DNA from: Escherichia phage vB-Eco-KMB39
Length of the DNA: 64,000 nucleotides
Sequence record: OR539219.1
Reading direction: 5' to 3' (one strand)
Shown in pieces: positions 54,247 through 60,075 of the stretch. The notes under the pieces were generated by a model. That model saw only the letters and a program-made list of their open reading frames with translations, did not search any database and was not told the origin of the DNA. A program made the translations under genes and the position numbers. The stretch's first letter is position 1, and every line of letters begins with the position of its first letter.

Positions 54247-55056
<810 letters not shown>

Positions 55057-55086
55057 TTTGAATAAATATCCTTAAAAGGAGGGTCT

Positions 55087-55743
55087 ATGGCAGCACCTAG
55101 AATATCATTTTCGCCCTCTGATATTCTATTTGGTGTTCTAGATCGCTTGTTCAAAGATAACGCTACCGGGAAAGTTCTTGCTTCCCGGGTAGCTGTCGTA
55201 ATTCTTTTGTTTATGATGGCGATTGTTTGGTATAGGGGAGATAGTTTCTTTGAGTACTATAAGCAATCAAAGTATGAAACATACAGTGAAATTATTGAAA
55301 AGGAAAGAAATGCACGCTTTGAATCTGTCGCCCTGGAACAACTCCAGATAGTTCACATATCATCTGAGGCAGACTTTAGTGCGGTGTATTCTTTCCGCCC
55401 TAAAAACTTAAACTATTTTGTCGATATTATAGCATATGAAGGAAAATTACCTTCAACAATAAGTGAAAAATCACTTGGAGGATATCCTGTTGATAAAACT
55501 ATGGATGAATATGCAGTTCATTTAAATGGACGTCATTATTATTCCAACTCAAAATTTGCTTTTTTACCAACTAAAAAGCCTACTCCCGAAATAAACTACA
55601 TGTACAGTTGTCCATATTTTAATTTGGATAATATCTATGCTGGAACGATAACCATGTACTGGTATAGAAATGATCATATAAGTAATGACCGCCTTGAATC
55701 AATATGCGCCCAGGCGGCCAGAATATTAGGAAGGGCTAAATAA
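55087..55743 (+). CDS. t: Holin T
   Basis: 218 aa; single N-terminal TMD (VAVVILLFMMAIVWY) and large periplasmic domain; matches recalled T4 holin. Confidence 0.92.
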   Translation: MAAPRISFSPSDILFGVLDRLFKDNATGKVLASRVAVVILLFMMAIVWYRGDSFFEYYKQSKYETYSEIIEKERNARFESVALEQLQIVHISSEADFSAVYSFRPKNLNYFVDIIAYEGKLPSTISEKSLGGYPVDKTMDEYAVHLNGRHYYSNSKFAFLPTKKPTPEINYMYSCPYFNLDNIYAGTITMYWYRNDHISNDRLESICAQAARILGRAK

Positions 55744-56016
55744 TTATTTGTTCGTATACATCTCTAGATATCGATATACACCCTCAAAACCCTCGTTGAA
55801 TTCGTCGATGAGGGTTTTCTTATCTTCTTGAGTTAATTCAGAAACAATTTTACGGAATGAATTCTGATTTAATTTTCTACCTTCATGTGTTACTCCAATC
55901 TCATTCAGAAATGCAATAAAATTAGCACGATTCTCAACAATATCTTCTCTGGAAAATTTAATCAAAATAGACGCAACAGTAATAATTTCACGAACTGTAT
56001 CAATGTTTTTATTCAT
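55744..56016 (-). CDS. asiA: AsiA anti-sigma70 factor
   Basis: 90 aa; MNKNIDTVREIITVASILIKFSREDIVENRANFIAFLNEIGVTHEGRKL... matches recalled T4 AsiA. Confidence 0.93.
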   Translation of the reverse strand: MNKNIDTVREIITVASILIKFSREDIVENRANFIAFLNEIGVTHEGRKLNQNSFRKIVSELTQEDKKTLIDEFNEGFEGVYRYLEMYTNK

Positions 56017-56028
56017 TAACTATACCAC

Positions 56029-56181
56029 TCAATTAGTTGACTTTGTTATAATATCATCAGACGCTTGATTTGTAAACTGGTCTGTGTTATTTTCTTCAAA
56101 AATTTTTTCTACGAATTCCTTGAACGACTCACGTTCCTGAGCTACATTGTGCTCGATTACCTTTTCAAGATTATGACTCAT
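56029..56181 (-). CDS. Small acidic protein between arn and asiA, below ORF-track cutoff
   Basis: Hand-translated 50 aa ORF MSHNLEKVIEHNVAQERESFKEFVEKIFEENNTDQFTNQASDDIITKSTN; ATGA overlap with arn stop. Confidence 0.45.
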   Translation of the reverse strand: MSHNLEKVIEHNVAQERESFKEFVEKIFEENNTDQFTNQASDDIITKSTN

Positions 56182-56456
56182 TCGAAATAATCTTCAATTT
56201 CGTAATCATGGACATAAATCATTATAGTTTTTAATACATCATCAATACTTTTTCCTGGAGCTGGAATTACGTAAAAATATCCTACTTTTGAGAGGTCTTT
56301 ATAAGTTCCAACCAAGAAATCATTATTCTCAAGATGTAGTTCTTCAACTAATTCATTGACAATTGAGTGGTATAAATTTGGTAGAAACTTATATAGCTTT
56401 TCTAGAATATCAATTTTGATTGTATATTGAACCACAGATTGAGAATCAATAATCAT
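56178..56456 (-). CDS. arn: Arn anti-restriction protein (inhibitor of McrBC)
   Basis: 92 aa; MIIDSQSVVQYTIKIDILEKLYKFLPNLYHSIVNELVEELHLENNDFLVG...; acidic. Confidence 0.85.
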   Translation of the reverse strand: MIIDSQSVVQYTIKIDILEKLYKFLPNLYHSIVNELVEELHLENNDFLVGTYKDLSKVGYFYVIPAPGKSIDDVLKTIMIYVHDYEIEDYFE

Positions 56457-56539
56457 AGACCTTCCCCTTATGTTTCTGTTTGCGATTAGATTCTTTAAAC
56501 GCTTTCTTTTTATCCTTATGGACAGAAGCTTTATTAAAA

Positions 56540-56758
56540 TTATGTTTTGCGACTAAATTGTTCATAGTGCTGAATTACCTCTCTCAAACATTTGCATGTG
56601 AATGAAAACTTTTTAGCTACACCACATTCAAATATATGTTCTCTTAAATCACGTGTATCAGTATATCCCATCTCAACAATAAAATGCCTTATTAGATTTT
56701 TATCTTTATCATTGAGAGAATTAAAATAATCAGATTTTGAATTAATTTCCCTGGCCAA
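56540..56758 (-). CDS. Hypothetical protein (arn.x series)
   Basis: 72 aa ORF. Confidence 0.5.
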   Translation of the reverse strand: MAREINSKSDYFNSLNDKDKNLIRHFIVEMGYTDTRDLREHIFECGVAKKFSFTCKCLREVIQHYEQFSRKT

Positions 56759-57038
56759 ATTGAATCACCTTCAGTTGACGTTTTAATTCTTTTATCATTT
56801 CTTCGTTCATCGCAATATAAAGATCGCGTAAAGCAGGTTTTAGCATTCCATTTACCGGAGAACTAAATGGGCATACATAATCTTTTCCTACAAGCTTTTT
56901 GGTAAATTCCATATCACAAAATTTAAATGCCGGCTCATTCGCATAAATTCCCCAATTAGTTGACATCATTTTATTGGCATATTCCAGTGCCTGGATTTGA
57001 TTCATAATTCCATCAATTTGAAACTTTTTAATATTCAT
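56742..57038 (-). CDS. Hypothetical protein (arn.x series)
   Basis: 98 aa ORF. Confidence 0.55.
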   Translation of the reverse strand: MNIKKFQIDGIMNQIQALEYANKMMSTNWGIYANEPAFKFCDMEFTKKLVGKDYVCPFSSPVNGMLKPALRDLYIAMNEEMIKELKRQLKVIQFGQGN

Positions 57039-57499
57039 TAGTAAAGGTCCTCAGAGTAAAGTTCTTTTTCACTACCACCACGTTCAATACGTACTTGTCC
57101 AGCGTAAGTTGCAATAATCATTGCTTCTTCACGTGTCCAATAATTACTATATTGGTCAATAAACCCTTGGTCATCATCACAAACTTGTTGAGTAACTAAT
57201 TGAGGTTTAACTACATCTAAAACTTCGGCCATATCTTTAGAATAATGACGAGCACCTGGAATAATAAGAGTTCGTCCATCTTTTAATTTAAAACGGTTGG
57301 CTGCGCAGACAATTCGTCGTTGATACTTTTGGTTTTCATCCCAATACGCAGTCTGCCAACAGATTTCAGGAACTTCATCTAAAACATTTTGTTCTGTATA
57401 TTCACCGCCGTAAGAAGCTAATTTAGCAGCCAGACTTTCCGGAGTCTCACGTAACAAAGCTTTATCTAACAGAGCTAAACGTTCTTTAAAAGTTTTCAT
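57038..57499 (-). CDS. Hypothetical protein (arn.x series)
   Basis: 153 aa ORF. Confidence 0.6.
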
Positions 57500-57825
57500 T
57501 TAAACCATCCTTTAATACGTTGCCACAAAGTTTTCTGTTGAGCTTTGTTAACACCAATTGAACGAATAACCGGTTGAGATTCCTGGAATTCTTTATAATC
57601 AGCAAGATAAATTTCGTAAGCTGCATCTGTAAAGGAACTTATCGCTGCCATAAAATTATTGCGAATACCTACTGGAGCATCTTTACTTTCACGAATAATC
57701 ATGTATTTACCAGTCTTAATCTTTACGATAGTTCCAAGATAAGCTCCATGATACCAGATGTCCCAACCCTCTTGAGTAGGTTCTGCACAACGACGAAGTT
57801 CATTGACAATTTCTAACTTGTTCAT
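57496..57825 (-). CDS. Hypothetical protein (arn.x series)
   Basis: 109 aa ORF. Confidence 0.55.
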
Positions 57826-57835
57826 TATTTATTCC

Positions 57836-58471
57836 TCACAGTTCAGATGCTACAGTGATTACTGCTTCAATGTTTTCTGCCGAACGTTTAATGTCAAGAT
57901 ACACATTACCGTTTTTAGCGATTTTACAAGACATTCCGATATCGGTAAATTTCTGAATATGATGTTCCATCATTTTGTATCCAAAAATTCGCATGTTTCC
58001 ATTATTGTTAATTTCAAAATTGCGAATTCCGTGAGTGCGTTTTTCTAAAATAGCAAGATAGTTACTGCGGTAAGTTTCAACCTTTTTAAGAACAAATCCA
58101 TTTTCATCTAAAAGTTTTAACATGAGGTCTTTATCTTCTTCCATATCGGAAGTAATCTCACGAGCTTTACGAGTTGCTCGTTTTTTCAGTAGTTCCGGAG
58201 CATTTTCCTGCGCGTATAAAGTTGCTGCATTTGAAATAATATCCTGAGCTTCACCAGTAATGATTAATCCATCACCAGATTTCTCTACCAGGCCTTTTTT
58301 AATCAATACACCAATATTACTATTAACTACTGCGTTACCTAAATCTGGATGCACCTCACGAACTTCTGCAGCTGTAATAAAATCTTTCTTAGCAATGGTA
58401 ATTAAAATCGCAGCAGTTTTTTCATTCAGAACATCGTTAGAAGCTTTGATGATGTAAGTTACTTTAGACAT
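57836..58471 (-). CDS. motA: MotA middle-transcription activator
   Basis: 211 aa; MSKVTYIIKASNDVLNEKTAAILITIAKKDFITAAEVREV... matches recalled T4 MotA. Confidence 0.93.
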   Translation of the reverse strand: MSKVTYIIKASNDVLNEKTAAILITIAKKDFITAAEVREVHPDLGNAVVNSNIGVLIKKGLVEKSGDGLIITGEAQDIISNAATLYAQENAPELLKKRATRKAREITSDMEEDKDLMLKLLDENGFVLKKVETYRSNYLAILEKRTHGIRNFEINNNGNMRIFGYKMMEHHIQKFTDIGMSCKIAKNGNVYLDIKRSAENIEAVITVASEL

Positions 58472-58512
58472 TTTCTAATCTCCGTAATTCTGTATCAGTA
58501 GTTGATAGTTGT

Positions 58513-58541
58513 ATAGTACCACAGTATGCTTTGGTTGTAAA
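58513..58541 (-). promoter_or_regulatory. Sigma70-type phage early promoter for motA (conserved cassette)
   Basis: Minus strand: -35 TTTACA, 17 nt, -10 TACTAT; A/T-rich upstream tract. Confidence 0.65.
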
Positions 58542-58574
58542 CCGTTTTGTGAAAAAAATTTTTGAAATAAAAAA

Positions 58575-58594
58575 GGGAGAGCCGAGGCTCTCCC
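58575..58594 (-). terminator. Intrinsic terminator
   Basis: GGGAGAGCC-GAG-GCTCTCCC; minus-strand hairpin followed by UUUUUU. Confidence 0.65.
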
Positions 58595-58600
58595 TAAAAA

Positions 58601-58750
58601 TTACTGCATGACTGTGATAACTGTCATGATAACACGTTGAATTCCGAACGCAAGAAGACCTCCTGCTACGGCTGGAACAACACCTAAACCCGCCAGTAAA
58701 ATGCTACCGGATACTAATGCAGCGCTTGTAATACCTATGAATGGACTCAT
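58601..58750 (-). CDS. Small hydrophobic membrane protein downstream of gene 52, below ORF-track cutoff
   Basis: Hand-translated 49 aa MSPFIGITSAALVSGSILLAGLGVVPAVAGGLLAFGIQRVIMTVITVMQ; ATGA overlap with gene 52 stop. Confidence 0.5.
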   Translation of the reverse strand: MSPFIGITSAALVSGSILLAGLGVVPAVAGGLLAFGIQRVIMTVITVMQ

Positions 58751-60075
58751 TTGATTTCCTCTAAATCTTTGGTGTATTCTGTAACTACATCAGTAGTTTT
58801 CCAATATTCGTTTTCTTCTTTCTTAGCTTTAGCTTCTTCAGCAAGTTTCTTTGCTTCATCAGAAGTCATATGAAAAATATTCATACCAACTAGTTTATCA
58901 ACATAAGAAGAATACATATCAATTTTAGAAAGTTCTTCAGTCAGTTCTTTACGAGTTTTACCCTGCACGACGATTTCACCTGAAATTACTTTCTTAATGA
59001 AATGCGCCTTGGCAAAGGCTAAACGAAAAGCTGATTCAGTTTCTTTGATTTTGTTATCAATTCGTTTTTGGACATAAGTTTTACGAACTTCAACGAAGTC
59101 TTTGATTAAATCAACTACGTTATCGTAAACTTGTAGTTTTCCTTTCTCATTAATAACCGTAATATTCTGAGAACGACGCTCAATCAACCCGAAGTCTTTC
59201 ATAATTTTTGCGTGGCGTTCTTCTTCATTATCGCTCAAAGAATATTCTTTACGGAATTTAACTTTAAAGCCAAAACCATGCTCACCACAAGCATCATCCC
59301 ATGTAATGAAGCCTTTATCTTCAAGTGGGTCTAAGATTTTACTCACATAAGTTTCACGATCATACTTATACGGAATCTCAGTGATATGCATTTGAGTTCG
59401 TGAAGTAAACTTATATGTTCCACGAATTTCATATTGCCCATCAATTTCAACGACTTCACCACGAAATTCTGGGAATTCTACCTTCGGTTTAGTTACTTTC
59501 TTTCCTTGAAGAGCTTGTAATACAGCTTTCTTAACAGAAGAAACACTATGAGGAAGAATGTAAGTTGCATAACCAGTTGCAATACCGGAAATACCATTAA
59601 GAAGAACAGTAGGAATAATAGGCAAATAGAAAGCAGGCGGAATGTGTTCTTTATCTTGATGTACCGGAGCATATTCAGTATCTTTATATACGCTATAGAA
59701 ATTTTTACTTACACGAGCAAAAATATAACGACTTGCCGCTGCTTTTTGAACGGTACGAGAACCAAAGTTTCCTTGACCATCTAACAAAGGAAAGTTATTA
59801 TTCCAAGTATTAGCCATCAAAGCCCCCGCGTCTTGTGCAGAGTTTTCGCCATGATGATATCCAAGGTCCGCTACACCACCTGCAATAGAAGCGAGTTTGT
59901 GAAACTTATCTTTATTCCCTCGTGCCAAATCAAGAGCTCGAGCAATAACAAATCGTTGAACTGGCTTAAATCCATCAATCATATTTGGAATAGCACGATT
60001 TTCAACCGTGTACATAGCATAAGCCAATGCTTCATTATCAATGATACTTTTTAAATCGCGATTATTCAGTTGCAT
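58747..60075 (-). CDS. 52: DNA topoisomerase II medium subunit gp52
   Basis: 442 aa (same as T4 gp52); GyrA-like N-terminal region with candidate catalytic tyrosine. Confidence 0.9.
   Translation of the reverse strand: MQLNNRDLKSIIDNEALAYAMYTVENRAIPNMIDGFKPVQRFVIARALDLARGNKDKFHKLASIAGGVADLGYHHGENSAQDAGALMANTWNNNFPLLDGQGNFGSRTVQKAAASRYIFARVSKNFYSVYKDTEYAPVHQDKEHIPPAFYLPIIPTVLLNGISGIATGYATYILPHSVSSVKKAVLQALQGKKVTKPKVEFPEFRGEVVEIDGQYEIRGTYKFTSRTQMHITEIPYKYDRETYVSKILDPLEDKGFITWDDACGEHGFGFKVKFRKEYSLSDNEEERHAKIMKDFGLIERRSQNITVINEKGKLQVYDNVVDLIKDFVEVRKTYVQKRIDNKIKETESAFRLAFAKAHFIKKVISGEIVVQGKTRKELTEELSKIDMYSSYVDKLVGMNIFHMTSDEAKKLAEEAKAKKEENEYWKTTDVVTEYTKDLEEIK

Follow-up and report, generated by a model that had tools for sequence, protein, structure and literature searches.

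Between the holin gene t and motA of Escherichia phage vB-Eco-KMB39 lies a run of small minus-strand reading frames that includes asiA and arn. A sequence-only reading of this DNA had taken the neighbours of arn for plausible additional anti-defence factors. The locus raises the question of which of these frames are genes, how they are expressed and whether those beside arn share its role.

A T4 early block and its gene content

We find the locus to be, with high probability, the canonical early motA-arn-asiA block of a Tequatrovirus (T4-like phage). Positions 55000-58800 of the window (the whole 64-kb stretch of DNA analysed here) align collinearly with those of T4, with 95.8% of nucleotides identical, and are 98.5% identical to phage ECML-363. 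Genes, order and strands are those of the T4 locus t-asiA-asiA.1-arn-arn.1-arn.2-arn.3-arn.4-motA (NC_000866, 160221-163602), with per-gene identities of 84-100% (AsiA 100%, MotA 98%, Arn 96%). Homology, in the form of Pfam matches and 832 phage records that match the region, places the identity of the cluster far beyond chance. Family profiles and T4 annotation agree on asiA, arn, motA and the holin gene; AsiA and Arn are matched over the full length of their families, and MotA in both its N-terminal activation domain and its C-terminal DNA-binding domain (Table 1). The same matches and annotation support the host-takeover and anti-restriction character that had been ascribed to the cluster. 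That observation is correct and already known, the locus being a textbook one. As the source genome is one among hundreds of near-identical Tequatrovirus genomes, the locus carries little weight as a discovery. The useful yield consists of corrections: both arn.1 and arn.4 are cut short in the records of T4 and T2, and a conserved gene of 39 aa is missing from that of T4, so that three stretches that look intergenic in the reference are in fact coding.

Table 1. Genes and transcript elements at the t-motA locus (window positions; promoters and the ArcZ pairing site are predicted).
Feature	Positions	Strand	Details
t	55087..55743	+	Holin, late gene, convergent with asiA; Pfam Phage_holin_T, 5.9e-117; 98.6% aa identity to T4 t
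Candidate asiA-sense stem-loop	55687..55719	-	In the 3' end of t, 25-57 nt past the asiA stop
asiA	55744..56016	-	90 aa; anti-sigma70 and co-activator of middle transcription; Pfam AsiA (PF09010), positions 1-85 of 85, E 1e-42
t-sense terminator-like hairpin and U-rich tail	55786..55829	+	Tail CUUAUCUUCUU; on the antisense strand of the asiA 3' coding end; terminator scan
asiA.1	56029..56181	-	50-aa acidic ORF; T4p256 in T4; phrog_3762, 7e-38
asiA-proximal early-type sigma70 promoter	56048..56076	-	Inside asiA.1; GTTTACA, 17 nt, TGaTATTAT
arn	56178..56456	-	92 aa; DNA-mimic inhibitor of McrBC; Pfam DM_Arn (PF22134), positions 1-79 of 79, E 7.8e-53
39-aa basic ORF	56446..56565	-	pI 10.2; Pfam DUF7230 (PF23876), 1.2e-11; phrog_1359, 5e-23
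arn.1, long form	56540..56758	-	72 aa; TTG start; Shine-Dalgarno AAGGUGA 6 nt upstream
GCAUU, RNase E motif of the T2 preprint	56683..56687	-	11 nt upstream of the short-form ATG (56671-56669)
arn.2	56742..57038	-	98 aa; phrog_1844, 3.8e-51; PF26819 Phage_T4_Y16C (precomputed); 96.9% identity to T4
ArcZ pairing site	56745..56754	-	CCAGGGAAAU; arn.2 +285..+294; +5..+14 of long arn.1
arn.3	57038..57499	-	153 aa; phrog_839, 5e-73; PF26092 T4_Y16D
arn.4, intact	57496..57825	-	109 aa; phrog_1594, 2.5e-54; PF26821 Phage_T4_Y16F
motA	57836..58471	-	Activator of middle promoters; MotA_activ PF09114, 4.7e-61; MotCF PF09158, 2.6e-67
motA early-type promoter	58513..58541	-	GTTTACA, 17 nt, TGgTACTAT; A/T-rich tract before it
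Intrinsic terminator-like hairpin and T-tract	58574..58595	-	Ends the upstream 52/motA.1 unit; 9 pairs, 6 G-C, then TTTTTTATTTC

Every reading frame listed in the sequence-only reading is found on the minus strand where that reading placed it, and each is a named T4 gene or belongs to a catalogued family. The acidic frame of 50 aa that had been picked out by hand is asiA.1 of T4. Four further frames of 72-153 aa, described as bearing no recognisable motif, are present and have no characterised relatives, but they do have T4 names, arn.1 to arn.4. The families of these T4 proteins (PF26827, PF26819, PF26092, PF26821 and, for the 39-aa protein, PF23876) are defined in name only, with the window proteins or near-identical homologues assigned to them.

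The listed frames are real, but the list left out the conserved 39-aa ORF between arn and arn.1. Its protein is encoded with 100% amino acid identity in the T4 sequence, yet it is unannotated in NC_000866; it is annotated in T2 and in phage Lutter. It is matched in all 27 related IMG/VR metagenome loci and intact in nearly all of them, and its four variable sites are all synonymous in its own frame, against none of the four in either of the other two. A relationship of this small basic protein to the ribosome-rescue factor ArfA, considered for a resemblance between the two, was rejected: a search of PDB sequences gave no match even at E 10, and Pfam gave DUF7230 alone.

With this gene in place, arn.4, arn.3, arn.2, the long form of arn.1, the 39-aa ORF, arn and asiA.1 make up seven overlapping ORFs with no non-coding gap, and asiA begins 12 nt after asiA.1. 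Translation of such tightly overlapping frames would probably be coupled. Paralogues of the cluster proteins were not found elsewhere in the 64-kb window, nor did an Rfam scan of 54900-58800 return a meaningful RNA family.

The arn.1 gene model and the ArcZ pairing site

The 72-aa arn.1 with its TTG start is the correct gene model, as the sequence-only reading had it; starts of orthologues, synonymous sites and predicted fold all uphold it. The T4 and T2 sequences encode the same long protein, although both records annotate 43 aa. These two annotations are part of the case for the opposite model, in which arn.1 is 43 aa long and a true non-coding regulatory spacer of 70 nt lies between it and arn.2. 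So are the reporter constructs of a 2026 preprint, which treat the stretch as intergenic, and the dependence of the long form on a UUG start. We nevertheless consider the short model highly improbable. All nine variable sites in the supposed spacer are synonymous in the long arn.1 frame, against one of nine in each other frame. Orthologues that are 48-72% identical to the window protein and 65-75 aa long begin with ATG at the matching start codon and keep the residues Y-F-N-S-L-N...K..I..F-I, and half of the 20 invariant columns (10) fall within residues 1-29. Most detected homologues (34 of 40) measure 62-74 aa. AlphaFold2 predicts one compact domain (pLDDT 89.5, and 88-94 over residues 1-30), with strand 3-5 paired to strand 51-53, and the UUG is preceded by a good Shine-Dalgarno sequence. 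A precomputed assignment places Arn.1 in PF26827.

This gene model bears directly on a recent account of host control. In the T2 arn operon, an RNase E site in a '70-nt intergenic region' has been reported to be protected by the host sRNA ArcZ, with RIL-seq pointing to arn.2 as the ArcZ target region (bioRxiv 10.64898/2026.06.19.733364). The long arn.1 is the correct gene, and this region is therefore coding, for Arn.1 residues 6-29. Both the ArcZ site and the GCAUU motif are unchanged in the window. The former is a 10-nt complement to the ArcZ seed (ArcZ sequence identity confirmed by Rfam RF00081, 120.8 bits) that occurs nowhere else in the operon and spans arn.1 codons 2-5; it is present in T4 and all T4-close loci and absent from diverged loci. 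The latter lies within codons 24-26 (R-H-F), in a stretch under purifying selection in the arn.1 frame whose protein is conserved in diverged phages, so that its location is coding. The GcAUU-to-GcAGG mutation of the preprint would also make a double missense change, H25Q and F26V, in Arn.1. We also asked whether RNA structure around the ArcZ site might occlude the start of arn.1 or the GCAUU motif; folding was no better than in shuffled sequence (z -0.49 and +0.40). A second ArcZ duplex at 57412-57461, predicted to be stronger, was set aside: the ArcZ nucleotides that it uses lie upstream of the site at which ArcZ is processed to its active form, and the T2 RIL-seq favours arn.2.

With the RNase E motif and the ArcZ pairing both inside arn.1 coding sequence, ArcZ may therefore act via arn.1 translation. 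It is tempting to speculate that ribosome occupancy, or else a roadblock where the arn.2 stop meets the arn.1 start, is involved rather than a passive spacer, and that part of the T2 mutant phenotype stems from H25Q/F26V; we advance this tentatively and would not wager on it. If true, Arn.1 itself would contribute to the fitness of the phage on hosts proficient in McrBC. In any case, the 2026 work on control of the arn transcript by a host sRNA calls for a different reading and different tests, as what it treats as a regulatory 'spacer' is the first third of a gene.

Arn and its neighbours

In T4, Arn acts as an acidic mimic of DNA: it inhibits McrBC, whose target is hydroxymethylcytosine DNA, and binds H-NS as well. 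The window protein is likewise acidic (pI 4.55; 16 D+E against 7 K+R) and 95.7% identical to T4 Arn, from which it differs in having I13, V49, V58 and S70. T4 Arn has been characterised structurally (Ho et al. 2014, as cited in PMC6024815). The PUA-Cal-HAD defence system is reported to be inhibited by T4-Arn but not by T2-Arn, with N70 of T4-Arn singled out in an AlphaFold3 model (bioRxiv 10.64898/2026.01.15.699771). Residue 70 is Asn in T4 and Ser in both T2 and the window, so that the reported key contact for this inhibition is lacking from the window Arn, a difference that concerns target range and not family membership. Carrying S70 as T2 does, the window Arn may have a narrower, T2-like target spectrum.

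The products of arn.1 to arn.4 and of the 39-aa ORF are genuine, conserved proteins and most probably accessory host-interaction factors. A more specific proposal is that arn.1 to arn.4 and asiA.1 are additional anti-defence factors, for example anti-restriction proteins or DNA mimics, clustered with arn. We regard it as possible but doubtful. These frames are probably transcribed together with arn and overlap tightly, and a T2 preprint suggests the same role (10.64898/2026.06.19.733364). Database labels of 'anti-restriction nuclease', on the other hand, are propagated gene names and not tests, and searches of Arn.1 to Arn.4 and the 39-aa protein in Pfam, PHROGs, NCBIfam and PDB sequences gave no similarity to characterised inhibitors; nor is there any in sequence, profile or fold to characterised anti-defence proteins. 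Among relatives, arn, asiA.1 and arn.2 come and go or give way to other genes, in the manner of accessory genes; arn.3, arn.4 and the 39-aa ORF, by contrast, occur in every related locus, with or without arn, which fits a core host-takeover role equally well.

The history of arn.4 also bears on this proposal. In the window it starts with ATG and encodes 109 aa, whereas T4 has ATA at codon 1 and an annotated product of 68 aa, and the T2 gene is frameshifted; wild isolates keep it intact. The independent lesions in T4 and T2 would fit a gene needed on some hosts only, and they suggest that the function of arn.4 is poorly represented in laboratory strains. A role for the conserved C-terminal tail of Arn.4 as a membrane-targeting amphipathic helix was discarded, the tail not being among the segments of highest hydrophobic moment.

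Structure prediction and DNA-mimic analysis had been proposed as a check on the anti-defence idea. AsiA.1 (pI 4.6; 11 D+E against 5 K+R) has the strong net negative charge that a DNA mimic needs, and Arn.3 (pI 4.9) is acidic as well, but Arn.1, Arn.2 and Arn.4 are basic (pI 8.5-9.2) and thus unlikely DNA mimics. AsiA.1 is absent from most diverged loci, weakly constrained in sequence among close relatives and without a family beyond phrog_3762. Arn.3 combines variable N-terminal helices with a conserved core domain of ~95 aa; its N-terminal ~40 aa are a different variant from those of T4, with 84% identity overall, and a profile search reached 3,433 representative clusters. The models of Arn.1 and Arn.3 (pLDDT 87 for the latter) are both confident, and Foldseek against the PDB gave nothing significant for either (best E 0.87 and 0.04, respectively). 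In a viral structure library, 'large polyvalent protein' entries contain the Arn.3 core fold as a domain (E 3e-3 to 6e-2), which would be in keeping with an anti-defence role; ten longer proteins with this core were tested for partner domains and had no Pfam match. A broader role in host interaction remains our preferred reading for these proteins.

Transcription of the block and the t/asiA junction

T4 AsiA binds region 4 of sigma70 and, with MotA, redirects the host RNA polymerase to middle promoters. The window AsiA, to judge from its sequence, would likewise bind sigma70 region 4 and co-activate MotA-dependent promoters. The early expression assigned to the cluster is supported by omics data on the T4 orthologues, in which asiA, arn, arn.2-4 and motA belong to the early RNA and early protein classes, and Arn.1 and AsiA.1 were detected as proteins (PMC9697503 supplements). 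The T2 preprint (10.64898/2026.06.19.733364) labels the arn genes a middle cluster, in contrast to the early class of the T4 study. Control of the arn genes by a middle promoter with a MotA box was rejected: the minus strand has no canonical TGCTT box at the correct spacing, the only near match (56835) having a spacer of 9 nt, and no mapped T4 middle promoter falls in this interval (PMC2988021 Table 1).

The view that these genes form one early transcription unit with motA holds in so far as the scan found no terminator-like site on the minus strand from the motA promoter to the asiA stop; it needs amending in that asiA has an early-type promoter of its own. This is the best promoter-like site of the region, with 10 of 12 matches and an extended -10. 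In nearly all related loci, a TTTACA-N16-18-TAnnnT motif, mostly with the extended -10 TG, lies 56-71 nt upstream of asiA, and it is kept although the spacers diverge. The position of the motA promoter is conserved in relatives as well. Transcription of the entire block would thus start upstream of motA, at a strong early sigma70 promoter, and the second conserved promoter, inside asiA.1, would add asiA-only transcripts. The hairpin at 58574-58595 is an annotated terminator in phage Lutter.

At the far end of the block, the stops of t (55741-55743) and asiA (55744-55746) abut with zero spacing, as the sequence-only reading had noted and just as they do in T4 (end of t, 160877; end of asiA, 160878). 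Its corollary, that termination here must be bidirectional and without a dedicated hairpin, does not hold, for two strand-specific hairpins sit in the 3' coding ends of t and asiA; expression of the two genes also differs in timing. The t-sense hairpin (55786-55818) has a 14-bp stem with five G-C pairs, a 5-nt loop and the tail CTTATCTTCT, and the whole element has the sequence make-up of an intrinsic (Rho-independent) terminator, a stable G+C-containing stem-loop directly before a U-rich tract. It is more stable on the plus strand (-18.0 kcal/mol) than on the minus strand (-10.4) because two of its pairs are G.U. The candidate asiA-sense stem-loop is in turn more stable in the asiA sense (-15.8 kcal/mol) than in the t sense (-9.9), a bias shared by each of the hairpins at the matching position in six related loci.

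We propose that the early asiA and late t units would each end at, or be stabilised by, the strand-specific hairpin in the 3' coding end of the other gene, in which case their transcripts would have some 100-150 nt in common. In diverged phages, another t-sense hairpin, with 13 bp, lies 5 nt past the t stop. Neither this hairpin nor the asiA-sense one has a classical U-tract, and these elements may therefore stabilise or process RNA instead of terminating its synthesis. It is conceivable, if rather unlikely, that no termination occurs at all, that early and late transcripts read into each other and that the hairpins are by-products of coding or RNA-stability elements. The missing U-tracts would suit such an arrangement, as would the separation in time of asiA (early) and t (late) expression and the weak regional folding scores (z = +0.33 for the 111-nt stretch around the asiA-sense hairpin, no better than shuffled). 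Against it stand the U-rich tail and terminator-like make-up of the t-sense element, the strand asymmetry that the G.U pairs impart and the 14-bp stem itself, longer than any other inverted repeat with separate arms over 6 kb. Strand-specific ends for the two units are further favoured by the t-sense hairpin of the diverged clade, which, though differently placed, shows two compensatory pair changes and has 99% of cells paired.

Gene content of the asiA-arn locus

The locus that runs from the holin gene t to motA is a further copy of one already known. It is collinear with the T4 locus at 95.8% nucleotide identity, and the T4 record holds t, asiA, asiA.1, arn, arn.1, arn.2, arn.3, arn.4 and motA in the identical order; 832 phage records match 55000-58600, the top match being Escherichia phage ECML-363 (98.5%). 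ORF listing and sequence reading recovered, on the minus strand and at the same coordinates, all the ORFs that a sequence-only reading had placed here, and Pfam matches were obtained for AsiA (1e-42), DM_Arn (7.8e-53), both MotA domains and the T holin. The observation behind that reading is confirmed, and its interpretation is partly supported. The ORF it described as hand-detected is indeed acidic (pI 4.6), but already bears a name in T4, asiA.1 (98% identical). Likewise, the four ORFs it took for unknown are present and are T4 arn.1 to arn.4, which belong to PHROG families and to recent name-only Pfam families (PF26827, PF26819 Phage_T4_Y16C, PF26092 T4_Y16D and PF26821 Phage_T4_Y16F). What our analysis adds is a set of gene-model corrections and their bearing on a report concerning the host sRNA ArcZ, and nothing else. 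Counting a long arn.1 and a 39-aa ORF, seven genes extend from arn.4 to asiA.1 with mutual overlaps of 1-26 nt, and there are zero non-coding bases between 57825 and 56029.

Features of the locus and of related phage loci (window positions, except where a locus handle precedes: L003, L010, L022, L023 and L026 are loci of related phages)
Feature	Position	Strand	Detail
t, holin	55087-55743	plus	ends at 55743
asiA-sense stem-loop	55719-55687	minus	inside t end
asiA	55744-56016	minus	90 aa; ORF listing and sequence reading
t-sense hairpin	55786-55818	plus	14-bp stem, 5-nt loop; 42 nt past t stop, within asiA coding sequence
asiA.1, acidic ORF	56029-56181	minus	50 aa; ORF listing
asiA-proximal early-type promoter	56076-56048	minus	inside asiA.1; GTTTACA, 17 nt, TGaTATTAT
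arn	56178-56456	minus	92 aa; ORF listing
39-aa ORF	56446-56565	minus	strongly basic, pI 10.2; overlaps arn.1 end and arn start
arn.1	56540-56758	minus	72 aa, TTG start; ORF listing
arn.2	56742-57038	minus	98 aa; ORF listing
arn.3	57038-57499	minus	153 aa; ORF listing
arn.4	57496-57825	minus	109 aa; ORF listing
arn.4 N-terminal region	57703-57825	minus	intact; damaged in T4 and T2
motA	57836-58471	minus	211 aa; ORF listing
motA early promoter	58541-58513	minus	T4-type; GTTTACA, 17 nt, TGgTACTAT
Terminator-like site	58595-58574	minus	only one on minus strand; upstream of motA promoter
Proteins with MSHNLE.V motif	L003 4267-4482, L010 4107-4283, L022 3855-4268, L023 4896-5204
Acidic ..EDY(F/I) proteins	L003 4032-4331, L010 3833-4114, L023 3372-3644, L026 3566-3916

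The arn.1 reading frame, the 39-aa ORF and the ArcZ element

In the T4 and T2 records arn.1 encodes 43 aa and 70 nt of "intergenic" DNA are left after arn.2, whereas the sequence-only reading had begun a 72-aa arn.1 at the TTG at 56758. Several lines of evidence favour the longer model. Orthologues in diverged phages are 65-75 aa long, have an ATG as the codon corresponding to this TTG and retain DYFNSLN..K..I..FI as an N-terminal motif; residues 1-29 hold 10 of the 20 invariant columns in a first alignment of 10 homologues, and 34 of 40 profile-found homologues measure 62-74 aa. Among ten T4-close sequences, all nine variable sites of the 70-nt stretch are synonymous in the long arn.1 frame, as against one of nine in each other frame. 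Additionally, a Shine-Dalgarno AAGGUGA lies 6 nt upstream of the UUG, and AlphaFold2 predicts a single compact domain (mean pLDDT 89.5, residues 1-30 at 88-94) with strand 3-5 paired with strand 51-53. The "70-nt intergenic region" (56672-56741, minus) of the T4 and T2 annotation and of the ArcZ preprint is thus coding, as part of the long arn.1.

The 39-aa ORF was missing from the earlier list of genes. It matches Pfam DUF7230 (1.2e-11) and phrog_1359, and is annotated in T2 and phage Lutter; in T4 a 100% identical ORF is unannotated in the reference. It was matched in 27 of 27 related IMG/VR loci and is intact in nearly all, including loci without arn and asiA.1. Where it overlaps no other gene, close relatives vary at four sites; read in its own frame all four are synonymous, and read in either of the other frames none is. 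In L032-L034, three assemblies that carry the identical Arn.4, automatic gene calls omit arn.1 entirely and include the 39-aa ORF and asiA.1 in some cases but not in others, so unstable is the annotation of such small genes.

Work on T2 in a June 2026 preprint reports that ArcZ base-pairs with positions +285 to +294 of arn.2 and thereby shields the arn.4-arn transcript from RNase E cutting at GcAUU, which is placed 11 nt 5' of the annotated arn.1 ATG, in the "70-nt intergenic region" (10.64898/2026.06.19.733364). We verified the ArcZ sequence: of 5,426 E. coli genomes, 5,417 carry it with 100% identity, and it scores 120.8 bits against Rfam RF00081. Both the ArcZ site CCAGGGAAAU (56754-56745), its sole copy in the operon, and the GCAUU motif (56687-56683) are unchanged in the window relative to T2. 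T4 and every T4-close locus have this ArcZ site, and diverged loci lack it. Given the long Arn.1, which the T2 sequence encodes just as the window does, the ArcZ site falls on arn.1 +5 to +14 (codons 2-5) and GCAUU in codons 24-26 (R-H-F). The change from GcAUU to GcAGG made in the preprint would then be H25Q plus F26V in Arn.1, and F26 is nearly invariant in homologue alignments. The ArcZ/GCAUU element is not a passive spacer. ArcZ might obstruct RNase E, or it might affect arn.1 initiation or the coupling at the arn.2 stop; local RNA folds gave no sign of structure for ArcZ to open. A second, stronger ArcZ duplex (-28 kcal/mol) is predicted in the arn.3 5' region (57412-57461, minus), drawing on ArcZ nucleotides GCAGCC, which lie 5' of the processed form's 5' end.

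Transcription and the t/asiA junction

The proposal of a single early unit shared with motA is reasonable, as no terminator-like site was found on the minus strand from the motA promoter to beyond asiA, but it is incomplete, given the second early-type promoter inside asiA.1. In nearly all related loci this promoter holds its place, 56-71 nt ahead of asiA, even though the spacers diverge. No canonical MotA box was found in the region, and in T4 zero middle promoters were mapped between 153011 and 165227 (PMC2988021 Table 1). T4 asiA, arn, arn.2, arn.3, arn.4 and motA are early as RNA and as protein, arn.1 combines early RNA with middle protein, and asiA.1 early RNA with late protein (PMC9697503 supplements); hence protein products have been detected for every one of these T4 orthologues. 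The sequence AATAAATA (57826-57833, minus), immediately 5' of the arn.4 start, has one mismatch to the T4 late-promoter box TATAAATA and carries a promoter annotation in phage Lutter. The GGAG of the motA Shine-Dalgarno (58479-58482, minus), conserved in the window, is the RegB endoribonuclease target known in T4 motA mRNA.

The spacing between t and asiA is zero, as had been described, the asiA stop codon occupying 55744-55746. The accompanying claim that no dedicated hairpin is involved in termination does not stand: hairpins of t sense and of asiA sense are present in the ends of the opposing genes. The t-sense hairpin, followed by CUUAUCUUCUU, has the longest separate-arm inverted repeat in 6 kb and is strand-asymmetric (-18.0 kcal/mol in t sense versus -10.4 in asiA sense) because two of its pairs are G.U. 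Diverged T4-like phages instead possess a t-sense hairpin of 13 bp that begins 5 nt downstream of the t stop; paired cells make up 99.1% across 12 loci, with compensatory changes in two pairs and G.U in three. T-sense hairpins within the asiA end thus recur, at a position that varies by clade. The asiA-sense stem-loop (-15.8 versus -9.9 in the opposite sense) was found at the same position in several relatives; it lacks a clear U-tract, and the stretch around it does not fold better than when shuffled. These junction hairpins may serve transcription termination or 3'-end stabilisation.

Uncharacterised proteins, Arn and its relatives

The Arn.3 model (pLDDT 87, core above 92) had no counterpart among solved structures (best E 0.04, TM 0.22), and its matches in a viral structure library were restricted to uncharacterised phage proteins of many lineages plus weak "large polyvalent protein" domains. 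Eleven residues are invariant (R61, A66, A67, R84, H85, Q111, G112, F113, D115, R123 and Q135). A profile search returned 3,433 representative clusters, stand-alone proteins of ~95 aa making up many of the best 150; ten longer proteins with this core had no Pfam domain. The ~95-aa core is a widespread orphan domain without a PDB fold match. The N-terminal ~40 residues (57380-57499, minus) form a variable module that diverges from T4 far more than the core. The Arn.1 model found no fold match, and PDB sequence searches with Arn.1, Arn.2, Arn.4 and the 39-aa ORF gave nothing meaningful.

Intact arn.4 (109 aa) is found in the window and nearly all related loci, wild relatives included. In T4 (L001 3334-3457) ATA replaces the ATG, so that the gene is annotated as 68 aa, and in T2 (L031 7517-7640) it is frameshifted after about codon 26; these are independent lesions in two laboratory phages. 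An anti-defence role of the uncharacterised genes is a guess, with only circumstantial support: these lesions, the operon context and the scattered presence of arn, asiA.1 and arn.2.

The window Arn differs from T4 Arn by F13I, I49V, A58V and N70S. In a January 2026 preprint T4-Arn, unlike T2-Arn, is reported to inhibit the PUA-Cal-HAD defence and to co-precipitate with it; the residue implicated by an AlphaFold3 model is N70, which is Ser in T2 (10.64898/2026.01.15.699771). On that account, the window allele, having S70, is T2-like.

The asiA.1 N-terminal motif MSHNLE.V reappears in diverged phages, in longer and variable proteins encoded immediately upstream of asiA, where it sits at the N-terminus or close to it. 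The 50-aa asiA.1 of the T4 type appears to be the short extreme of a variable family. Loci lacking a recognised arn encode, in the arn slot or at a neighbouring place in the block, acidic proteins 90-116 aa long that end in ..EDY(F/I). For one of them BLASTP aligned 36 aa with the C-terminus of Arn (E 3e-4), but Pfam DM_Arn gave no match; as a group, these proteins are probably distant Arn relatives.
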